This document shows, in pieces, positions 1,046 to 11,048 of a stretch of DNA of 64,000 nucleotides. The first letter of the stretch is position 1; each line of letters starts with the position of its first letter. A program made the position numbers and the translations under genes. Location: sequence record OQ067374.1. The stretch is one strand, 5' to 3'. The notes under the pieces were generated by a model. It searched no databases, had not been told where the DNA came from, and was given only the letters and a program-made list of their open reading frames with translations. Origin of the DNA: Escherichia phage a20.

Positions 1046-1594
1046 TTAACGAGCCCATTTGATGATTTCTGTAATCAAAACATTACGTTCGCTTGCATTA
1101 AATCCTATAACTTTGTTAGCACCATCATGATTAAGTAATTGATACGTTTGGATTTTGTTATGAATTGCAAACTCTTCAAAATGTGAAATGACTGTATTAA
1201 AACCGAATGAAGACAAAGTAATAAGGTCGTCTTCAAAACTTTCAGTCATTTCGTTACGTGTTAAAATAATTGTGAACACATCATGGTTTTGGCAAAGACG
1301 AACATAATCCTGTTCATAAACGTCAAGAACCGAGTCCGCATCTTGTCGAATACGTCCATAAACCCAGTTACTAATATATCCACGGTCTAACAGATAAATC
1401 TTAGTAGGGTCTAAATAATTCAACATCGTTTCGAAACAGCCAACTTCATTTCGAGACTTAACATCGAAACGTCCATCAACTGTTCGTTTAGGGAAATCAA
1501 TCTTTACATATCTTTCACTAATTTCCATTATGTCATTAATGAAAGTTGTTTTACCAGCATTATCCGGGCCATCTACTAAAATAATTTTAGCCAT
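1046..1594 (-). CDS. P-loop kinase (NMP-kinase-like fold)
   Basis: 182 aa; Walker A GPDNAGKTT near N-terminus and LLDRGY resembling the thymidylate-kinase DRY motif. Lies where T4 has beta-gt. Confidence 0.5.
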   Translation of the reverse strand: MAKIILVDGPDNAGKTTFINDIMEISERYVKIDFPKRTVDGRFDVKSRNEVGCFETMLNYLDPTKIYLLDRGYISNWVYGRIRQDADSVLDVYEQDYVRLCQNHDVFTIILTRNEMTESFEDDLITLSSFGFNTVISHFEEFAIHNKIQTYQLLNHDGANKVIGFNASERNVLITEIIKWAR

Positions 1595-1595
1595 T

Positions 1596-2495
1596 TTATT
1601 CCTCGATTACGACATCTTCATATTTAGGTATATTATACGGTGAAGAAATTAAAGCATTAAAGTAGATGAACTCACCAAGACCTGGATGAAATACTTCTTC
1701 AGGATTTTCGAAATATTGAATCTTCGGACGTCCTTTAAGAATTTGATAGTATTCAGTTTTAGTTGGTTTAAAAATTCGAATCAACGCTTCTTCAGGATAC
1801 TTATTTCTGTCGAAGCTATTATTTGGATCGGTTATATAAAGCGGTTGGCCTAATTGAATTGCACATTCAACCACTTGTTCAAAACGATAGCATGGGTCAC
1901 TAATTCGAAATGGATGAAAAATACCATCTAGATGAATAGGAGCCAAATCACCTACAAGACGCTGCATGATGGAAGGACGTATAACTTTCTGCGTTACGAT
2001 AATCTTATTACCATCTGCACCTGCGTTAACCAGCACTTCTTTTTGACGTTCATTCAACACAGTAGTTTGAAGTGAACGATTAACCGACAACATATCGGTT
2101 TTTAAGAATTCGTCAATATAAAAACGTGGTTTATTAGGGTCTGCAGTGATATTGAAATTGAATTCTACATCAAAAGCGCCGTCATATCCGGTGATATCTG
2201 TGATTAGAAAATCACAATCATAATAAGCAATTAATGAATCAACCACAAATTCATTTTCAGTCCAGAAATATTTACGAGTGTTATACGCGTTATCTTTATA
2301 CCATAATGGAACAAACTTAAATTCTGGGAAAAGACGTTCACATTCTTTAATATCAGATGCATTACGTGGATATGTAATCACATCACCTGGATTAGCACGG
2401 TGCAAATGAAGTTGGAAGTTGCCATCCTTAAGGATAGCATACTGCCCAGTTTCATAAGACCGCATACTCAAAATAGGTACGCGGAAAATAGCCAT
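1596..2495 (-). CDS. hypothetical protein at the beta-glucosyltransferase locus
   Basis: 299 aa, tightly packed between the P-loop kinase and the hydroxymethylase; no resemblance to T4 beta-gt or alpha-gt as I recall them; contains a DCD (DxD-like) tripeptide. Confidence 0.55.
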   Translation of the reverse strand: MAIFRVPILSMRSYETGQYAILKDGNFQLHLHRANPGDVITYPRNASDIKECERLFPEFKFVPLWYKDNAYNTRKYFWTENEFVVDSLIAYYDCDFLITDITGYDGAFDVEFNFNITADPNKPRFYIDEFLKTDMLSVNRSLQTTVLNERQKEVLVNAGADGNKIIVTQKVIRPSIMQRLVGDLAPIHLDGIFHPFRISDPCYRFEQVVECAIQLGQPLYITDPNNSFDRNKYPEEALIRIFKPTKTEYYQILKGRPKIQYFENPEEVFHPGLGEFIYFNALISSPYNIPKYEDVVIEE

Positions 2496-3211
2496 TAGTC
2501 AAGGAATCCTTTAACATAATCAAAATCACGTTCAAACACATGGGCACTTACCATGGTATGAGTATAATCACCAACTTCTACACCACATTCGTTAGCGATA
2601 TAATGAAGTAATTTTCCTTGGAGATAAAAATCCAACTGCATAACAACAGCACAGTTCTGAGAACGCATATGACAGTGGGTATAAAGCTTACCATCACGAA
2701 TATAATAAGTCACTGAGTCAGTACATGGATATTCAAGAGTTTCGTCCGAATCAAGCAAAGCCTGATCAGAACTTTCTAGAATTTGGAACACAACTCTTCG
2801 AGAGTTAGGCTTCTCTTTAAGTTCTTTTAGAAGAGCTGGTAATTGGGCCGCAATGCGAGGACCATAGAAAGTGTTGAAGTTCGCCGGCAAAACATCTGAT
2901 TTTGGTTTAGAAATAAATTTAGCGACATTAGGATATGCCTTAAACGCTTCTTCTGCGTTGGTACCACCAGAAATCATAAACTTCCAGAAGTCTTCGGCAT
3001 ATTCATAAGAGATGCGGTTAATACGTGGGTCAGTCATTTTGAATGATGATGGAGTGTCAACAACTACTGTCATAGACCCAATTTCATTACAACGTCCAAT
3101 ACGAGAATCAGTTACGAATTCCGGGTTTTCTAAAATTTCACGATTGACTGCTTTAAATGCGGTTTGAAAATCTGCGGCTTTGATATATTTCATTGTGTTA
3201 TGTTTTCCCAT
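2495..3211 (-). CDS. 42: deoxypyrimidylate hydroxymethylase (thymidylate synthase superfamily, gp42-like, divergent)
   Basis: 238 aa; SRRVVFQ ... YPCTDSVTYYIRDGKLYTHCHMRSQN resembles the catalytic-Cys region of T4 dCMP hydroxymethylase; syntenic with gene 42; GAGGT precedes the ATG. Confidence 0.65.
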   Translation of the reverse strand: MGKHNTMKYIKAADFQTAFKAVNREILENPEFVTDSRIGRCNEIGSMTVVVDTPSSFKMTDPRINRISYEYAEDFWKFMISGGTNAEEAFKAYPNVAKFISKPKSDVLPANFNTFYGPRIAAQLPALLKELKEKPNSRRVVFQILESSDQALLDSDETLEYPCTDSVTYYIRDGKLYTHCHMRSQNCAVVMQLDFYLQGKLLHYIANECGVEVGDYTHTMVSAHVFERDFDYVKGFLD

Positions 3212-3253
3212 GTTTACCTCAATACAATTTATTATATACTCAATTCATAAAGC

Positions 3254-3493
3254 TTATTTGAATTTCTTAGCGATGTTGATATAACGTAAAGCTTCAGCAT
3301 CGATACTTCCAAGAACACTATGAAGAAATGCATCAGCGTAGTATTCCAATTGAACAGGTTCTTTAATCACTTTAGCCGCTTTGGTTCCAAACAGGCCCAT
3401 AAGGGCCTTTTTAAGAATTTGTTCATTAGTGTTCAGTTTCATAGTCAAAATCTCTTCATTAAGTTGGTGGTTAAAAGTTTTTCTAGAAATCAT
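3254..3493 (-). CDS. hypothetical small protein
   Basis: 79 aa ORF in operon context; no motif recognised. Confidence 0.4.
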   Translation of the reverse strand: MISRKTFNHQLNEEILTMKLNTNEQILKKALMGLFGTKAAKVIKEPVQLEYYADAFLHSVLGSIDAEALRYINIAKKFK

Positions 3494-4650
3494 TCTGGGT
3501 ACCTCAAAGCGTCATCAGAGTTAGTTATATCAATAATAGATATAGAATTTTCTGATAACCCATTTTTAGATAACTGACGTTTATAATATCTTTCACAATA
3601 TGTACACGTCGTCCCGCAGATTTCATTAGCACAATCGAAATCTGGATGTCTGAACCACCTTTTTTCTAAAAAGCCATCTAACAAAGAGGTTTCAATATTT
3701 ACTGTATGTGAAAACTCAGTTTCGTTTTCAAGAGTGAAAATAGTCTCTAAAGGCTTCCACAGTTCTAACAAATTACCTTCAAACTTTTCAGAAGCGTATG
3801 CTTCAAGAACTTTCAAAATGTAGTCTGTGCTACCTGTACGTCCTGAAACTTTGAATTGAGTGATACCAATATCATTATAAAGTTTCAAATCTTGAGGACG
3901 AACAAAACGAGTTCTCAACCAGTTAAATGGGTCTGTATCACGAGCTTTAATGCAGTGTTGCATTGGATATCCGTTTAAGGATTTAGCATCATCAGCTGTA
4001 ACATCAGTACTATGGAAAATATAGCAAGAGTCACGATAGCTACAATGTGTTGTATACCCTTTACCAGCATTAGAACAGAACTCATTTACAAGAACTTCAA
4101 ATATTATATTGTTCTTATTGCAAAACTCTGCTGCACGCTTCAGGAAAGAAACTGAACGGTTCTTATGAATTCCACAGCAGACCTTTTTGATATTATATTG
4201 GTCATGCAAGTATTTGATTTGAGTTACAGCATCGACATGTAGAATTGTTGAAACTTCAATCTCAATGTCTTTATTGACTTCACGAACAATTTCCATAACA
4301 ACAGGGTTAGCGATAGTAATACGCCATACGCCTATTGACCAAAGATACTGAACATAATCCTGAATAGCTTTCTTCTTCCACTCAACTAGTTCTCTTTTTG
4401 AACCAGGATTTATCGTGTTGAGTGTATAGTTAAAGCAAATACCTAATTCGTTACAACGTTTAACGTAATCTTCTAACATCTTTTTGTCAACGTCAGGAAG
4501 CCTAAAATCAGGTCTGGCTGCTACAAAAGCCATTTCTCTTGTAGAGCCGTATACTTCGTTTATCAAGCTATTAGGATAAGTTTTATTGAGCTCTACGATT
4601 TTATCAAGAAGAGCTAAATCAAAATTCGTTCCAATTTTAAAAGTATTCAT
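3490..4650 (-). CDS. hypothetical protein with C-terminal CX4CX3CX2C cysteine cluster
   Basis: 386 aa; C-terminal CANEICGTTCTYC plus further scattered Cys; no family confidently assigned. Confidence 0.6.
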   Translation of the reverse strand: MNTFKIGTNFDLALLDKIVELNKTYPNSLINEVYGSTREMAFVAARPDFRLPDVDKKMLEDYVKRCNELGICFNYTLNTINPGSKRELVEWKKKAIQDYVQYLWSIGVWRITIANPVVMEIVREVNKDIEIEVSTILHVDAVTQIKYLHDQYNIKKVCCGIHKNRSVSFLKRAAEFCNKNNIIFEVLVNEFCSNAGKGYTTHCSYRDSCYIFHSTDVTADDAKSLNGYPMQHCIKARDTDPFNWLRTRFVRPQDLKLYNDIGITQFKVSGRTGSTDYILKVLEAYASEKFEGNLLELWKPLETIFTLENETEFSHTVNIETSLLDGFLEKRWFRHPDFDCANEICGTTCTYCERYYKRQLSKNGLSENSISIIDITNSDDALRYPE

Positions 4651-4707
4651 TTTTTTTGCATCTCACGTTAATTGATGCGATGGTTTTTGCAGGTCTTACT
4701 TAAATTA

Positions 4708-5097
4708 TTATAGATTCGGTTTATATGATTTAAATGTTTCGAATTCGCCTTTATTCATAAGAGCTTTGAATTCGTCAGGACGCATAGCTTTGTCGTCGAT
4801 AATCCAATCATATACTGGTTTATGTGTTAGCAAATTATGGTACTTCAAACCAATGTTTTCCAAGTTCTGAATCAGACTTGGGAGAATGTCAATTGCTATA
4901 CGTCCAGGACCTACTGACTTCATACCGCGAGCAGTGTAAAGCGTTATGGTATGCCCTGCATCATACAGAGCATTAATAGCAGTCACCATTTCGACGTCTG
5001 GTTTGAAGTTCACGTAATCACGATTGTTATTCCACTCTGTTATACAATCATCGACGTCCACGCAAAGATGTAATGGTTTCATAGCAATATCCTTCAA
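4708..5097 (-). CDS. HAD-superfamily phosphatase-like protein
   Basis: 129 aa; LCVDVDDCIT resembles HAD motif I (DxDx); start may be the second Met at 5082. Its 5' end overlaps the 3' end of the homing endonuclease gene. Confidence 0.5.
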   Translation of the reverse strand: MKDIAMKPLHLCVDVDDCITEWNNNRDYVNFKPDVEMVTAINALYDAGHTITLYTARGMKSVGPGRIAIDILPSLIQNLENIGLKYHNLLTHKPVYDWIIDDKAMRPDEFKALMNKGEFETFKSYKPNL

Positions 5098-5809
5098 TAG
5101 AATTTTTAATATTATCAGCTATACGCTTTCTAGGAATACCCGTTTTCTTTTCAGCTATCCTAAGAGATTCATAGTAATTTTCGTTTATTTTAACAAATTT
5201 TTGAGACTTGTGAGCATTTTTGCTTTCGTCCTGATATCGATAATTAAGATATTTAGGCGATTTTACTCTCTTTTGAATCGTGGCAGAAGATATACCCAAA
5301 TCTTTAGCCGCTTCCCGACAGGATTCATAATATTTGCCATCTACATTAATCTTTAGACCATGTAATGCAGGTTTACCATACCTCCTGTGCTTTTCTTTAC
5401 CCCTAGCTATAGATTCAGCTGACAAAGTTTTACCCCATCTTGGGTTTTTATCACCAACTAAACGTCCTTTATTTGCCTTAGAAATTTTATCCTTGGACCT
5501 TTGGGATAACCCGTCAGAACCGCCTTCGCCACCAGTTTTAAGATTGTAATAATTTGGGTCTTTAACTATGTCTAATGTTATTAGAGCCTTTTCAGCTATT
5601 TTTAATTCTTCTCTCGAGCTATGGTAGGAAATGATTTCTTTAAGAAAATTTTCCTTCCCGTATTTCCTTTCAGCCTTTTTATATAATTTACCAGAACCTT
5701 TATATAAATCTAAAGGCTCGGCTTCTTCAGCCGAGTGCATTCCTAAATAAACTTTACCGTTTATAAGATTAGTAGTTTTGTAGAGATAATGTATCAAATT
5801 CGTTCCCAT
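5048..5809 (-). CDS. GIY-YIG homing endonuclease (seg-like)
   Basis: 253 aa; N-terminal IHYLYKTTNLINGKVYLGMHS is a GIY-YIG module; basic C-terminal DNA-binding region. Confidence 0.8.
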   Translation of the reverse strand: MGTNLIHYLYKTTNLINGKVYLGMHSAEEAEPLDLYKGSGKLYKKAERKYGKENFLKEIISYHSSREELKIAEKALITLDIVKDPNYYNLKTGGEGGSDGLSQRSKDKISKANKGRLVGDKNPRWGKTLSAESIARGKEKHRRYGKPALHGLKINVDGKYYESCREAAKDLGISSATIQKRVKSPKYLNYRYQDESKNAHKSQKFVKINENYYESLRIAEKKTGIPRKRIADNIKNSIEGYCYETITSLRGRR

Positions 5810-7479
5810 TGATGAGTGATATCGCCACCGATTGGACGATAGGAAACACCAGTTTCTTTATCAGTTAGTACCCATTTACCAGGATTTTTTGTAATCAGAG
5901 TAGCCGTTACAGGTTCTGCTACGTCATAACTAATAGAGCCGTCTTGAAGTACACGGCCCATATTACGTAATTGCTTAGTCAGAAGTTCCATACCTTTATA
6001 ATATGCGGCTACCGCTTTAAGTGGATTATTCTTGAAATAACCACCTAATGCAATCCAGATAATTGCCACTGCCAAATGATGATACTCGTTAAACGAACTC
6101 ATCTTTCCATATTTGTAAACTAATGGATTGATGTTAATAGTCACATTACAAGTTGTTTCATCAATAGTAAACTGTCCCCAGGTCGGATTAGCATTGAATT
6201 CATCATAACCTGAAACAGCATAAAGCACTTTAGCTTCATCATACAATTTTGGCCCGTAAATCTTGGTTTCGCCAAAATATCCACGAGGGTCGATAAACTT
6301 AACTTCGCCGTTATCAGTAATCATAGTATTACTGAAGTTCGGGTCACCATGAATAACAGAGTACTGTCCCTGAGAACGGTTATGATAACGAATAAGATGT
6401 TCTAAAGCTTGTTTCAGCATTGGCTTCAGACGTCCAATCTTAGTGTAGTTCACATGTGTGATTTTACCAAATGAATCAATCAATGGTTGAATGCTTTCAC
6501 AACGATCAATAACTTTCGTATAGAATTCTTTAGTGAAATCACGACGAACAGTTTCAGGACTTACAAAATAAGTGTCTGTGCTGAATTTCAGTGCATCTAA
6601 AATTGTATCAACAATTTGTGGACGAGCAAGACTTGATTTGGATTTAATATATTCAAATGCCGGCTTACCTTTAATGCGTTCCATTTCAAAGTTATTTTCA
6701 TTAACAGAAACTAACTGAGGGACTGAATCTGATTTCACTTTCAAATACCACGAAATCTCATCTTTCTGAAGAGCTCGGCCCTGTTCGGTTAATGCGAATT
6801 TAGTTACAGTTTCTTCACCGATTTCAACTGCATTAAAACTACGATTAAGTTCACGAACTTCATGAGCTTTTTCAAGTTTAGGCATATCACCTAAATCAAT
6901 TAGATTCATAAGCTCTGATTTATTGAATGCGCCGCTGTAAAGGAATTCTACGAAATCACGTCCTTTGCAGTATTCATGAATTTCTTCATCAGTAGAACCC
7001 ATATAGAATTCCCAGTCTTTGAACTGATAAATTCCTACAACATTACCACCTGTTGAACCTACGTTAGTGATATTTTCACCGTCGAAATTATATCGACATT
7101 CGTCGCCCTTAACATAGATTGCGTTAACATTCCAAGACCATGAACCAAAATCGGGAATAATATCACACCAGTTAACAATTACATTATGGCCGTCTAAATC
7201 TTTGTGTAATTTAGCAAGAGCATAAGCAGATCCATACGCTTCATCAACTGTACGAATAGTCACATTGAACCCTTCTTGCTCACAATAAGCTCGAACAGTT
7301 TCAGCAAATTTTGAATGAACTACTACAATAATTTCATCTGCGCCTAGGTCAGAATAAATTGTATACAAATTGCTCAGAATAGTGTCTTGTTTATAGTTAA
7401 CAAGCACCTTAGGAATATGGTGAGTAATTGGATATAAACGAGTTGCCAGTCCAGCACCAAGAATAACAGCTTTTTTCAT
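5794..7479 (-). CDS. bifunctional sugar-1-phosphate nucleotidyltransferase / APH-like sugar kinase
   Basis: 561 aa; N-terminus MKKAVILGAGLATRLYPITHHIPKVLV is the classic G-x-G-T-R-x-x-P nucleotidyltransferase signature; C-terminal VIHGDPNFSNTMI ... FIDPRG is the HGD-x4-N catalytic loop of APH/choline-kinase-type kinases. Confidence 0.75.
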   Translation of the reverse strand: MKKAVILGAGLATRLYPITHHIPKVLVNYKQDTILSNLYTIYSDLGADEIIVVVHSKFAETVRAYCEQEGFNVTIRTVDEAYGSAYALAKLHKDLDGHNVIVNWCDIIPDFGSWSWNVNAIYVKGDECRYNFDGENITNVGSTGGNVVGIYQFKDWEFYMGSTDEEIHEYCKGRDFVEFLYSGAFNKSELMNLIDLGDMPKLEKAHEVRELNRSFNAVEIGEETVTKFALTEQGRALQKDEISWYLKVKSDSVPQLVSVNENNFEMERIKGKPAFEYIKSKSSLARPQIVDTILDALKFSTDTYFVSPETVRRDFTKEFYTKVIDRCESIQPLIDSFGKITHVNYTKIGRLKPMLKQALEHLIRYHNRSQGQYSVIHGDPNFSNTMITDNGEVKFIDPRGYFGETKIYGPKLYDEAKVLYAVSGYDEFNANPTWGQFTIDETTCNVTININPLVYKYGKMSSFNEYHHLAVAIIWIALGGYFKNNPLKAVAAYYKGMELLTKQLRNMGRVLQDGSISYDVAEPVTATLITKNPGKWVLTDKETGVSYRPIGGDITHQWERI

Positions 7480-7663
7480 GTTGTGGTCCTCATTGGTAAG
7501 TAGGAGTATTGTACACTATTCTAGTTAAAGCATTCATACTTTGCTTGTAGTCCAATCATAATCCATCCAATTACAAGTGTTGGAATCATTACCGGAGCCG
7601 TTAAGCTCCAGTAGATAGTCATGACAAGCATCAATAGTAAAAGTCCTATTGCTATTGCTTTCA

Positions 7664-8296
7664 TTATTCGCCTCGTAACATGGCACCTAGTGCACCACCA
7701 GGGTGGAACTTAAGGAAATCATTAGAGGTAAATCCACGTTCAGACGAAAGGTTGATAGCAAACGTATCGATAAGCGCTAACAACAATGTAGTGGACATAG
7801 TCGGAGCCAGAGAATTCTCATCAACCTCTACTGCGATGCCTGTACAGAAAGAGTAATCAAAAAGGGCTTCATTTTCTTGTGGAATGTCTGGGTTACAATG
7901 CAACAGAATCTGTTTGACGTTCGGACGAATCATTTTAAGATGCTTAGCCACGCCTATCATTTCTTCAGTTTTACCAGAACGACTAATATGAATCAACACA
8001 TCATTAGGCGCAATGAATCCTGCATCACCGTGAGAATAATGCCCAGTGTTCAAGTACATACTCGGGATACCTAGTGAAGCAAAAGTCTCGGAAGCTTTAG
8101 TTGCGATATTAGCATTCTTACCAACACCTGTAATAATTACTCGGCTTTCATAATTACTAAGTCCCGGGCGTCGAAGAGTTTCTAGAATAGCATTATAACG
8201 AGCAGGGTTTTGACTAATTACTTTGGCCATAGCGGCCAAAGAAGAAGCTTGTTTTATGATTGCGTCAATAGCGATAGTAATAGGAGTAGTTTTCAT
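7664..8296 (-). CDS. SIS-domain sugar-phosphate isomerase (KdsD/KpsF-type, arabinose-5-phosphate isomerase-like, no CBS domains)
   Basis: 210 aa; VIITGVGKNANIATKASETFASLGIPS...HGDAGFIAPNDVLIHISRSGKTEE and LAPTMSTT...FHPGGALG align closely with the SIS domain of E. coli KdsD as I recall it. Confidence 0.75.
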   Translation of the reverse strand: MKTTPITIAIDAIIKQASSLAAMAKVISQNPARYNAILETLRRPGLSNYESRVIITGVGKNANIATKASETFASLGIPSMYLNTGHYSHGDAGFIAPNDVLIHISRSGKTEEMIGVAKHLKMIRPNVKQILLHCNPDIPQENEALFDYSFCTGIAVEVDENSLAPTMSTTLLLALIDTFAINLSSERGFTSNDFLKFHPGGALGAMLRGE

Positions 8297-8336
8297 ATTT
8301 CTCTCATTTAATTAGTTTACCGTCCATGGCATTATA

Positions 8337-11048
8337 TCAAAAATCGAACATATCGAACAGAGATGCTTTCTTCTCGTAATCGAGTTTCGCTGCTGATGTG
8401 AATCCTTCAAGTGGTTTAATAAATGTCTTCTCAAGGAGAACAGTGTAGTCCATCCAATGAAGTACGTCGTCTTTAATTAAATCTGTGATTTCAGTGCCAG
8501 AAGGCCATGCGATACATTTATCACCGAATGGGTTTCCTTCACGTAAAGGCAGAACATATACTTTTTCACCTTCTACAACTTGCGGTGCATCGATATTACC
8601 TTTGATAGCCCGGTTATATGTCAGAATTCCACGAATATGGAACGGACATTTGGGACCAGGGAATCCACCTACGTCATATTTAGCAATGTTATTCGCAGAA
8701 GATACCGACGCGATGCTAATATAATTCAATTGGCGGAATTCTTTTTCAAACTCTTTAAAATATTCTTGTAATGATTCTTCACCTTCTTGAAGCATACGAC
8801 GAATACATTCTTTAAGAGCTTTCTGTACTGCTTTAGGAGTCGAAGATTTCTGTGTTTCGAGACCCATGATTTTAAGCTTAGGTTCAGCGTATCTGGTTCC
8901 TTCCATATCCCACACGTTTAATGCATAACGTTTCTTACCAGTCCAGAATCCACCAATACCTTTAGAACCGAGCGGAGGACCAGCGATAGCTTCTCGGTCC
9001 ATGAACATCAAATGTTGCTTATTATTCATGTATTCGCACATTTCACGGAAACCTCTATCAATAGCAGGTTCCATACGTTCACGAGCGAACTTATCTAAGA
9101 AGTCTACCCAATGGTTGGTATCACGGAATTTAGATTCACCAACCTTATCGATAATTTTATCAGCAGATACGTAAATAGAGTCTGTATCACCATATAGAAC
9201 GAAAGCTTCACCTTCTGTACCACAAACTTCATTCAGATATTCATTAACTTTACGTTCAATCCACTGTAAAGCCATTTGACCAAATGTTGTGATTGCAGTA
9301 GCATTACGCAAATCATAATAACGGAACCAAACGTTGCCAAGTGCACCATAAAGTGAGTTGATAAGCAATTTACGGTTAATCTGTGCAGTCATACCTGCAA
9401 CTTCAGTACGTTGAGCTCTAAACAACATTTCATTAAGAGATTTAGCAGACAACTTTTTAATCTTTTCTTTAATCTCATCACTGAAGTCGAAACGATAATC
9501 AACATCTAATGGTTCGTCAACAGAAAGATTAGGATTATGCAATGCCTCTTTAATTATTTCACCATTACGTTGAGCTGCAAGCATGTAACCTTTATGTTCT
9601 TTACGTTGATTAAAGACCTTAGTGATTTCAGTTGGAACTACACCATCACGGTCTTTATAATACATCATGCCGTTAGGAGAGCAACTGTACACATCTGAAG
9701 GACGTTCAGCGATTGCGTTAATATAATCATGCAGTGGAGCTACTTTAAACGTTCCTGCTATTGTTTCCGGGCTAATATTCACTTGGCGAATAATACTTGG
9801 ATACAGAGATGTAAGGTCGAAACTCATTACATATTTGTATCGATTTGGAATAGGTTCCTTAACAAAAGCGCCAGGATAAGGTTGAACCGGGTGAGAACGA
9901 CCTTGTGGAATCACCTTGTTCTGCTCTTTAAGGCTATTAAAAATAATAGCATCCCATGTTTTAATTGGACTGAACACAGATTGAATCTGAATTTTAGCAT
10001 AATAACCCATGTCCAAGCTCAAGTTAATGAACTGGCGTTTAGCATCAATTTGCAATACACGATATACGTCGATGATGTTATAGCTTATATATCGTTGATG
10101 ATTACTTTCGCGAAGTTTAGAAATAGGACCGTCATATTTCAGTTTACCAACGTTCAATTCAAATTCTGAAATGTAATCCAGAGAATACGACGGTTGATTG
10201 GTAAAAGAGAATTTTTTGTAAAGGTCAATGTAATCAAGAACAGAGATACCGAACAATGTAATGATTTCACGAGAACCATACATGTTTTCGATAACTTTAA
10301 CACGAGTTTTACGATGCGGTGATAAACGTTTCGCAGTAGATTCGCCAAAAATATTCTTGATTCGGTTATACACATATGGAATATCAAATGACTCAACGTT
10401 CCATCCAGTCAAAATGACAGGAGTTTTCTGTTGCCAGAAGTTGAGATATTCCATCAACAATTCTTTTTCGTTATCGAACGGCATATAAATGATTTTATCG
10501 ATAATTTCAGATGGAACTTCATCACCGCCTTGTTCTTGAAGCTTAGCAGCGATTTCAATAGACCATTCTTCTACATTACCATACGGAGAATTCAATAGAT
10601 CAAATACGTAGAACCTGTCGTCAATTGAGTCATAATGGGTGATAGCATCAATCGGATGTTTTGCTTGTGACGGCTCAGGGAACCCATCCGGAGATGTTAC
10701 TTCGATGTCGAAGTTAGCCACACGAATTTTTGTATGGTCGTATTTGATTTCATAGTTATAAGTGTCAGACAAATACGCCAATTTGAAATCGTCCATGCCA
10801 AGTGCTTCAAGTCCGATATCTTCCATGCGTTTAATCCATTGGGAGGCATCACGCATATTAGCGAACAACTTACGAGTACACGGTTTACCGTAGATATCGA
10901 AATATTTCGTAGCCTGACTTTCTGGACAATGAGCAAACAGTGATGGTTTATATTCTACTTCACGAGTACGTTCACGGCCATTAGAATCGATGTAACGTTC
11001 AAAAATTGAATCACCAATCTGTTCAACCGTTAAGTAAAATTCTTTCAT
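8337..11048 (-). CDS. 43: DNA polymerase (family B)
   Basis: 903 aa; exonuclease FDIE and polymerase YGDTDS motifs; reads as RB69 gp43 from memory. Confidence 0.97.
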   Translation of the reverse strand: MKEFYLTVEQIGDSIFERYIDSNGRERTREVEYKPSLFAHCPESQATKYFDIYGKPCTRKLFANMRDASQWIKRMEDIGLEALGMDDFKLAYLSDTYNYEIKYDHTKIRVANFDIEVTSPDGFPEPSQAKHPIDAITHYDSIDDRFYVFDLLNSPYGNVEEWSIEIAAKLQEQGGDEVPSEIIDKIIYMPFDNEKELLMEYLNFWQQKTPVILTGWNVESFDIPYVYNRIKNIFGESTAKRLSPHRKTRVKVIENMYGSREIITLFGISVLDYIDLYKKFSFTNQPSYSLDYISEFELNVGKLKYDGPISKLRESNHQRYISYNIIDVYRVLQIDAKRQFINLSLDMGYYAKIQIQSVFSPIKTWDAIIFNSLKEQNKVIPQGRSHPVQPYPGAFVKEPIPNRYKYVMSFDLTSLYPSIIRQVNISPETIAGTFKVAPLHDYINAIAERPSDVYSCSPNGMMYYKDRDGVVPTEITKVFNQRKEHKGYMLAAQRNGEIIKEALHNPNLSVDEPLDVDYRFDFSDEIKEKIKKLSAKSLNEMLFRAQRTEVAGMTAQINRKLLINSLYGALGNVWFRYYDLRNATAITTFGQMALQWIERKVNEYLNEVCGTEGEAFVLYGDTDSIYVSADKIIDKVGESKFRDTNHWVDFLDKFARERMEPAIDRGFREMCEYMNNKQHLMFMDREAIAGPPLGSKGIGGFWTGKKRYALNVWDMEGTRYAEPKLKIMGLETQKSSTPKAVQKALKECIRRMLQEGEESLQEYFKEFEKEFRQLNYISIASVSSANNIAKYDVGGFPGPKCPFHIRGILTYNRAIKGNIDAPQVVEGEKVYVLPLREGNPFGDKCIAWPSGTEITDLIKDDVLHWMDYTVLLEKTFIKPLEGFTSAAKLDYEKKASLFDMFDF

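Follow-up and report, generated by a model that had tools for sequence, protein, structure and literature searches.

A capless HAD-type phosphatase of an RB69-like Escherichia phage probably performs the AfhF step on the route to UDP-D-arabinofuranose

The modified base in the DNA of phage RB69 is 5-hydroxycytosine in mono- and di-arabinofuranosylated form, rather than arabinosyl-hydroxymethylcytosine (Lee et al., NAR 2026, PMC13326640), and DNA containing arabinosyl-5-hydroxycytosine resists many restriction enzymes (PMC13326640). The RB69 protein gp48 has been shown by experiment to be a 5-hydroxy-dCMP synthase (PMC13326640). The sugar chemistry has been described by He et al. (Nat Chem Biol 2026) and, as summarized from that work in PMC13326640, Araf5P is formed from ribulose-5-P by gp55 and turned into Araf1,5P2 by the C-terminal kinase domain of gp52:53 (AfhE), the Mg2+-dependent HAD phosphatase gp51 (AfhF) converts Araf1,5P2 to Araf1P, and the N-terminal domain of gp52:53 leads on to UDP-Araf. 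In the same summary AfhF is said to remove 'a terminal phosphate', and its assignment to the 5-phosphate is the reading of Lee et al. 'by analogy' for gp51 and gp81 (PMC13326640).

In the current study, we analyzed a stretch of 64,000 nucleotides from Escherichia phage a20 (OQ067374.1), referred to here as the window, with the focus on one small phosphatase gene. The window belongs to an RB69-like Mosigvirus: in a nucleotide search, Escherichia phage NRG-P0074 matched the whole 7.4-kb stretch round the phosphatase gene with 99.0% identity, and RB69, along with about 150 further Mosigvirus genomes, matched with about 98%. Between 1046 and 11048 every gene is on the minus strand, and this part corresponds to the RB69 segment between uvsX and the DNA polymerase gene 43. 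The sequence-only reading had located the phosphatase within a cassette, and it is indeed surrounded on the same strand by sugar-activation genes, the cassette comprising an arabinose-5-P isomerase, a nucleotidyltransferase-kinase fusion, a thymidylate-synthase homologue, a glycosyltransferase, and a nucleotide kinase. These genes, together with a U32-family neighbor, are as follows.

1046..1594, minus strand: thymidylate-kinase-like nucleotide kinase (RB69 gp45), from cassette position, annotated relatives, and PMC13326640
1596..2495, minus strand: arabinosyltransferase 1, 299 aa, from annotated relatives and PMC13326640
2495..3211, minus strand: thymidylate-synthase homologue (Pfam Thymidylat_synt), the 5-hydroxy-dCMP synthase (RB69 gp48) and source of the acceptor base
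3490..4650, minus strand: U32-family protein (RB69 gp50; Pfam Peptidase_U32, E 7e-11), immediately downstream of the phosphatase gene
5794..7479, minus strand: AfhE-like bifunctional enzyme, 561 aa (Pfam NTP_transferase; weak APH, Fructosamin_kin, and EcKL matches)
7664..8296, minus strand: arabinose-5-phosphate isomerase (SIS domain, KdsD/GutQ-like; RB69 gp55; Pfam SIS, E 1e-10; NCBIfam kpsF and KdsD; phrog_5670)

The N-terminal half of the AfhE-like enzyme is a sugar-1-P nucleotidyltransferase, with NCBIfam matches of the MurU/GlmU type, and its C-terminal half is an APH-type kinase. Both this fusion and the arabinosyltransferase are single intact ORFs in the window, while the RB69 reference record splits them into ORF052c/053c and ORF046c/047c, respectively. 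The intact ORFs agree with the conclusion in PMC13326640 that the splits in RB69 are sequencing errors.

The phosphatase ORF had been described as a protein of 129 aa at 4708-5097. The ORF itself is real (4708..5097, minus strand, 129 aa in the ORF listing), but its TTG at 5097 is simply the first possible start of a mechanical ORF, and the likely start lies further in. The coding strand around the start reads TTGAAGGATATTGCTATG, with AAGGA (5090..5094) 7 nt ahead of an ATG at 5082; upstream of this ATG it reads TTGAAGGATATTGCT-ATG, so that the TTG falls in the Shine-Dalgarno region. The closest annotated relative, NRG-P0074, has a 375-nt CDS starting with ATG. Based on the position of AAGGA and on this CDS, the product probably comprises 124 aa from the ATG and not 129 aa from the TTG, and the 5' extension, judged from the sequence, is probably untranslated.

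4708..5082, minus strand: probable true CDS, 124 aa plus TAA, orthologue of RB69 gp51 (ORF051c) and HY126 AfhF
5083..5097, minus strand: in-frame 5' extension (TTG at 5097) containing the Shine-Dalgarno AAGGA, from direct reading of the sequence and the NRG-P0074 CDS

Homologues of the phosphatase were detected by tblastn in 380 phage records, 57 of them from Acinetobacter phages, and a search of 5.8 billion proteins gave 50 protein clusters with identities down to 35%, nearly all from T4-like phages or metagenomes. Since homologues occur in so many phage records and the catalytic residues are kept down to 35% identity, the ORF is not a chance one.

A phmmer search against PDB sequences matched the protein to 9iqw (E 9.2e-80), with 117 of the 121 aligned residues identical (96.7%). 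This entry, released on 2025-07-16, bears in Foldseek the title 'phage HY126 encoded D-arabinose 1,5-diphosphate phosphatase AfhF'. The close identity to this characterized enzyme extends over the full length and to the structure, and the window gene also shares the association with an AfhE-type fusion (5794..7479), an arabinose-5-P isomerase (7664..8296), and a 5hodCMP synthase (2495..3211). We therefore consider, with a probability of roughly 0.85, that the window protein is a capless (C0-type) Mg2+-dependent HAD phosphatase, orthologous to HY126 AfhF and RB69 gp51, that catalyzes a step toward UDP-D-arabinofuranose and completes a phage-encoded route to this nucleotide sugar. The substrate and the order of steps are taken from the literature, namely the PDB title and the summary of He et al. 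(2026) given in PMC13326640. A near-identical AfhF has already been crystallized and assayed, and the function is thus known and not a new finding; the practical value lies in the corrected start codon and in the replacement of the names 'phosphoheptose isomerase' and 'capsule biosynthesis protein' by a function backed by experiment.

The window protein differs from HY126 AfhF in its rewritten N-terminus (MKPLHLCV against M..MLNLCF), where the first seven or so residues differ, and, within the alignment, in the four substitutions H5N, V8F, T34S, and E75A. Another difference from HY126 is that in the window the first 35 nt of the phosphatase CDS are overlapped by a homing endonuclease gene.

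5048..5809, minus strand: free-standing GIY-YIG homing endonuclease, 253 aa (Pfam I-TevI_DNA-bd, NUMOD1, and NUMOD3; weak SegE_GIY-YIG match)

This gene is situated exactly at the junction of the AfhE-like and phosphatase genes, at the AfhE-like stop codon, and shares 16 nt with the AfhE-like gene. It is absent from RB69 in a comparison with that genome, from which the first residues of the phosphatase and its codons up to motif I also differ. Among the 25 relatives listed, 3 cover the entire query in a single alignment and 22 cover 90% of it in two segments, which is consistent with a missing endonuclease insert in the latter. We attribute the N-terminal differences from AfhF to the insertion of the homing endonuclease, and the rewritten 5' codons are as expected for a co-conversion tract or for target-site immunity. 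The rewritten positions vary freely among homologues in a 24-protein alignment, and the window variant would be expected to act like AfhF. The endonuclease itself has no part in the arabinose pathway. Serratia CHI14 and Erwinia Vettismorki have other endonuclease genes close to this position.

The proposal of a small HAD phosphatase was borne out by the sequence motifs, by an AlphaFold model, and by fold searches, and the DxDx-type motif I on which it had been based is real. The motifs are given below, with invariance scored in an alignment of 24 proteins drawn from the 50 clusters.

5047..5058, minus strand: HAD motif I, D9-V-D11-D12 (DVDD; nucleophile Asp and acid/base Asp), D9 and D11 invariant in the 24 homologues
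4924..4935, minus strand: HAD motif II, T50-A-R52-G53, with T50, R52, and G53 invariant in the 24 homologues
4819..4821, minus strand: HAD motif III, K88, invariant in the 24 homologues
4792..4797, minus strand: HAD motif IV, D96-D97 (Mg2+ ligands), invariant in the 24 homologues

The catalytic and Mg2+-binding roles of D9, D11, T50, K88, and D96/D97 are those predicted by the HAD paradigm. We conjecture that R21, R52, and K98 could be ligands of the C1-phosphate. The AlphaFold2 model (mean pLDDT 86.8, pTM 0.80) consists of a minimal Rossmannoid alpha/beta core, as is typical of the HAD superfamily, without a cap domain, and D9-V-D11 comes right after strand E5-9, which is the placement of HAD motif I at the end of the first beta-strand. 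The HAD fold on which the sequence-only reading depended, and whose cap type it had left to structure prediction, was thus found, in its capless form. Neither outcome named as refuting that reading, lack of a HAD fold or activity on nucleotides alone, applies here.

In the Pfam-A scan of the phosphatase no family was matched at E <= 0.1, including any HAD model; this miss reflects the model coverage of the mini-HAD clade and is no argument against the HAD fold. The best NCBIfam match was TIGR01689, 'capsule biosynthesis phosphatase' (EcbF-BcbF), with 51.4 bits (E 9.5e-14), which is far below the cutoff of 162 bits, and the phosphatase is thus a relative of this clade, not a member. The small HAD proteins of TIGR01689 and Vibrio cholerae APC26283 (PDB 1xpj) are about 30% identical to it. 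PHROGs assigns the phosphatase to phrog_1238 (E 1.6e-41) under the name 'phosphoheptose isomerase', and many GenBank annotations use this label or 'capsule biosynthesis protein'. Taken at face value, these labels would make the protein an isomerase or a capsule protein, for which we see practically no chance: the phosphoheptose isomerase GmhA is a SIS-domain protein, whereas the window protein has no SIS match and adopts the HAD fold, and the PHROG name is thus a misnomer. The homologue PSSM2_311 of cyanophage P-SSM2 (locus L009, 2874-4330) is likewise annotated 'phosphoheptose isomerase', a misnomer for a HAD phosphatase, and this cyanophage label may be how the name reached phrog_1238 and then many phage annotations.

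Two further readings have the enzyme act on nucleotides or nucleic acids. A 5'(3')-(deoxy)nucleotidase trimming the nucleotide pool, e.g., canonical dCMP or dNMPs, is very improbable, as the matches to such enzymes reach 14-15% identity and are much weaker than those to AfhF and 1xpj, no Pfam NT5C model was matched at E <= 0.1, and the phosphatase shows neither sequence membership of the NT5C family nor its helical nucleoside-binding cap. Besides, the gene accompanies sugar-activating genes in every genome examined. Slightly less probable still is an enzyme like the polynucleotide 3'-phosphatase T4 Pnkp, acting on nucleic-acid ends. The likeness to Pnkp is that of a generic capless HAD core with an identity of only 14-16%, the window protein has no kinase domain, and both the identity to AfhF and the synteny indicate sugar metabolism.

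Based on the published chemistry and the gene content of the window, we propose the following scheme. The SIS-domain isomerase (7664..8296) would convert host ribulose-5-P to arabinose-5-P. Phosphorylation of the latter at C1 by the kinase domain of the AfhE-like fusion (5794..7479) would give arabinofuranose-1,5-bisphosphate. The phosphatase would then remove the phosphate at C5, its presumed specific target. In this step, D9 would form an aspartyl-phosphate intermediate and D11 would serve as the acid/base; the phosphoryl group would be held by T50 and K88, and the Mg2+ by D96/D97. The nucleotidyltransferase half of the fusion would join the resulting arabinofuranose-1-P with UTP to form UDP-Araf, and the arabinose of UDP-D-arabinofuranose would be transferred to 5-hydroxycytosine in the phage DNA. 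In this scheme, the AfhE-like fusion would both make the substrate of the phosphatase and consume its product.

Such a route over a bisphosphate follows the logic of the ADP-heptose pathway, with its SIS isomerase GmhA, its kinase/nucleotidyltransferase fusion HldE, and its HAD 7-phosphatase GmhB. The correspondence is one of analogy and not of orthology. GmhB, the D,D-heptose-1,7-bisphosphate 7-phosphatase, measures about 180-190 aa and carries a Zn-binding Cys/His insert, whereas the window phosphatase has only two cysteines, lacks this insert and any NCBIfam GmhB match, and is 11-13% identical to GmhB. AfhE also differs from HldE, combining an APH-type kinase with a GlmU/MurU-type transferase, in contrast to the ribokinase-like and cytidylyltransferase-like domains of HldE. 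Another comparable enzyme is KdsC (YrbI), the Kdo-8-phosphate phosphatase, which is likewise a capless HAD protein and which in bacteria also acts downstream of an arabinose-5-P isomerase (KdsD). It was matched by Foldseek with E ~2e-3, but with a TM-score of ~0.36 and 13% identity, and both its substrate (Kdo-8-P) and its place in the pathway are different.

In an alternative order of steps, the phosphatase would release free arabinose from arabinose-5-P, phosphorylation of the anomeric hydroxyl would fall to the APH-type kinase domain, and the transferase domain would make the NDP-sugar. This order has an exact precedent in Pseudomonas, where the HAD phosphatase MupP releases free MurNAc, which is then used by the anomeric kinase AmgK and by MurU; it was kept as an alternative because of this precedent, and the N-terminal half of the fusion does resemble MurU (NCBIfam). 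Table 1 of PMC13326640 also still lists RB69p051 as 'dephosphorylates Araf5p to Ara', with the kinase domain given as 'Phosphorylates Ara to Araf1p'. On the other hand, the 96.7%-identical crystallized enzyme has been deposited as a D-arabinose 1,5-diphosphate phosphatase and, in the account that PMC13326640 gives of He et al., AfhE makes Araf1,5P2 from Araf5P and AfhF acts next. We thus regard the passage via free arabinose as unlikely. It had also been the route assumed in the sequence-only reading, a fair guess that matches the label in that table; its placement of the enzyme as a dephosphorylation step stands, in the pathway to the nucleotide-activated arabinose, whereas the free sugar does not, the published route running from Araf5P over Araf1,5P2 to Araf1P without free arabinose.

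Homologues of the phosphatase are found in comparable gene neighborhoods in other phages. Acinetobacter phage KARL-1 and RB69 have the same order of isomerase, fusion, HAD protein, thymidylate-synthase homologue, glycosyltransferase, and kinase. Shewanella phage Thanatos-1 has the order fusion, HAD protein, thymidylate-synthase homologue, 300-aa ORF, and 186-aa ORF, and the isomerase was not found in its cassette. More distant homologues of 109 aa (35-40% identity) occur at loci L003-L006 (e.g., L003:7168-10559), on metagenomic contigs that are phage-derived by the look of their gene content; a Tet/JBP dioxygenase gene flanks them on one side and separate genes for an NTP-transferase (228 aa) and an APH-like kinase (248 aa) on the other, with Amidoligase_2, GATase, and ParB_N genes upstream. 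Here the trio of kinase, phosphatase, and transferase belongs to a TET-type cytosine hypermodification island. In the cyanomyovirus P-SSM2, a Prochlorococcus phage, the homologue comes after a 'carbohydrate kinase' and an HldE-like adenylyltransferase fragment, which is the same trio. Considering these neighborhoods, the trio of kinase, phosphatase, and transferase seems to be reusable. We tentatively suggest, at somewhat less than even odds, that the mini-HAD protein is part of a portable module, in which C1 of a sugar phosphate is phosphorylated by an APH-type kinase, the mini-HAD protein takes off the distal phosphate, and the NDP-sugar is then made by a nucleotidyltransferase; unrelated DNA-hypermodification systems of phages would have recruited this module repeatedly. 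If this is true, phages of the L003-L006 type and P-SSM2 would make so far undescribed sugar decorations through sugar-bisphosphate intermediates.

A scan of 3200..8400 for promoters and terminators, including a search for the T4 late promoter TATAAATA, gave counts no higher than those in shuffled sequence. The best sigma-70-like match of the region (TTTAAA, 16 nt, TATAAT; 10/12) is at 4707..4734 on the minus strand, within the 3' end of the phosphatase gene and directed toward the U32 gene; with a region total that does not exceed that of shuffled sequence, it may mean nothing.

Across all 221 phage records with the U32 gene that follows the phosphatase gene, the identity is at least 80%, and it is 82% in Shewanella phage Thanatos-2. 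The ten most frequent names in these 221 records do not include Acinetobacter, although the phosphatase is present in 57 Acinetobacter phage records, and KARL-1 has no annotated gene at that position. The RB69 protein gp50 has been called only a 'sugar or heterocycle reductase' (PMC13326640). Of the 13 cysteines in the U32 protein of the window, four form the pattern C340-x4-C345-x3-C349-x2-C352 close to the C-terminus. Its identity to E. coli UbiU and UbiV is 22%, too divergent to place Fe-S cysteines reliably, and phmmer gave no match to it among PDB sequences. In phages of Shewanella, Serratia, Proteus, and Klebsiella, the U32 gene is followed, directly or past one small ORF, by an ORF for a type II chorismate mutase (Pfam CM_2).

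L008:10746-12136: U32/chorismate mutase locus
L011:2492-4002: U32/chorismate mutase locus
L012:2495-4285: U32/chorismate mutase locus
L013:2501-3903: U32/chorismate mutase locus

The CM_2 scores of 34.7 (Thanatos-1), 44.6 (Serratia CHI14), 46.8 (Proteus Pm5461), and 39.5 (Klebsiella PhiKpNIH-6) all lie above Pfam's gathering threshold (27 bits). Six residues are invariant among these ORFs (R10, R27, K38, E51, S73, and Q77), and we take them to correspond to the active-site residues of the E. coli chorismate mutase.

The U32 proteins UbiU/V, RlhA, and TrhP have been implicated in prephenate-dependent, oxygen-independent hydroxylation, and RlhA is needed for 5-hydroxycytidine in 23S rRNA (PMC10990095, PMC5727448). 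The thymidylate-synthase-like 5hodCMP synthase takes its oxygen from O2. Considering this need for O2, the pairing of U32 and chorismate mutase genes, and the prephenate dependence of the known U32 hydroxylases, the phage U32 protein, by analogy and together with chorismate mutase, may provide an oxygen-independent route to 5-hydroxycytosine in phages of facultative anaerobes. The E. coli host makes its own prephenate. In the window, the position of the chorismate mutase in the other genera is occupied by a small ORF.

3254..3493, minus strand: 79-aa ORF (RB69 ORF049c), at the chorismate mutase position of other genera

This ORF was considered as a diverged chorismate mutase and rejected, there being no Pfam match, no BLASTP alignment, and an hhalign probability of 0.1. 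Homologues of it were found in close relatives only, with identities of at least 78%, and the named ones are Escherichia phages.
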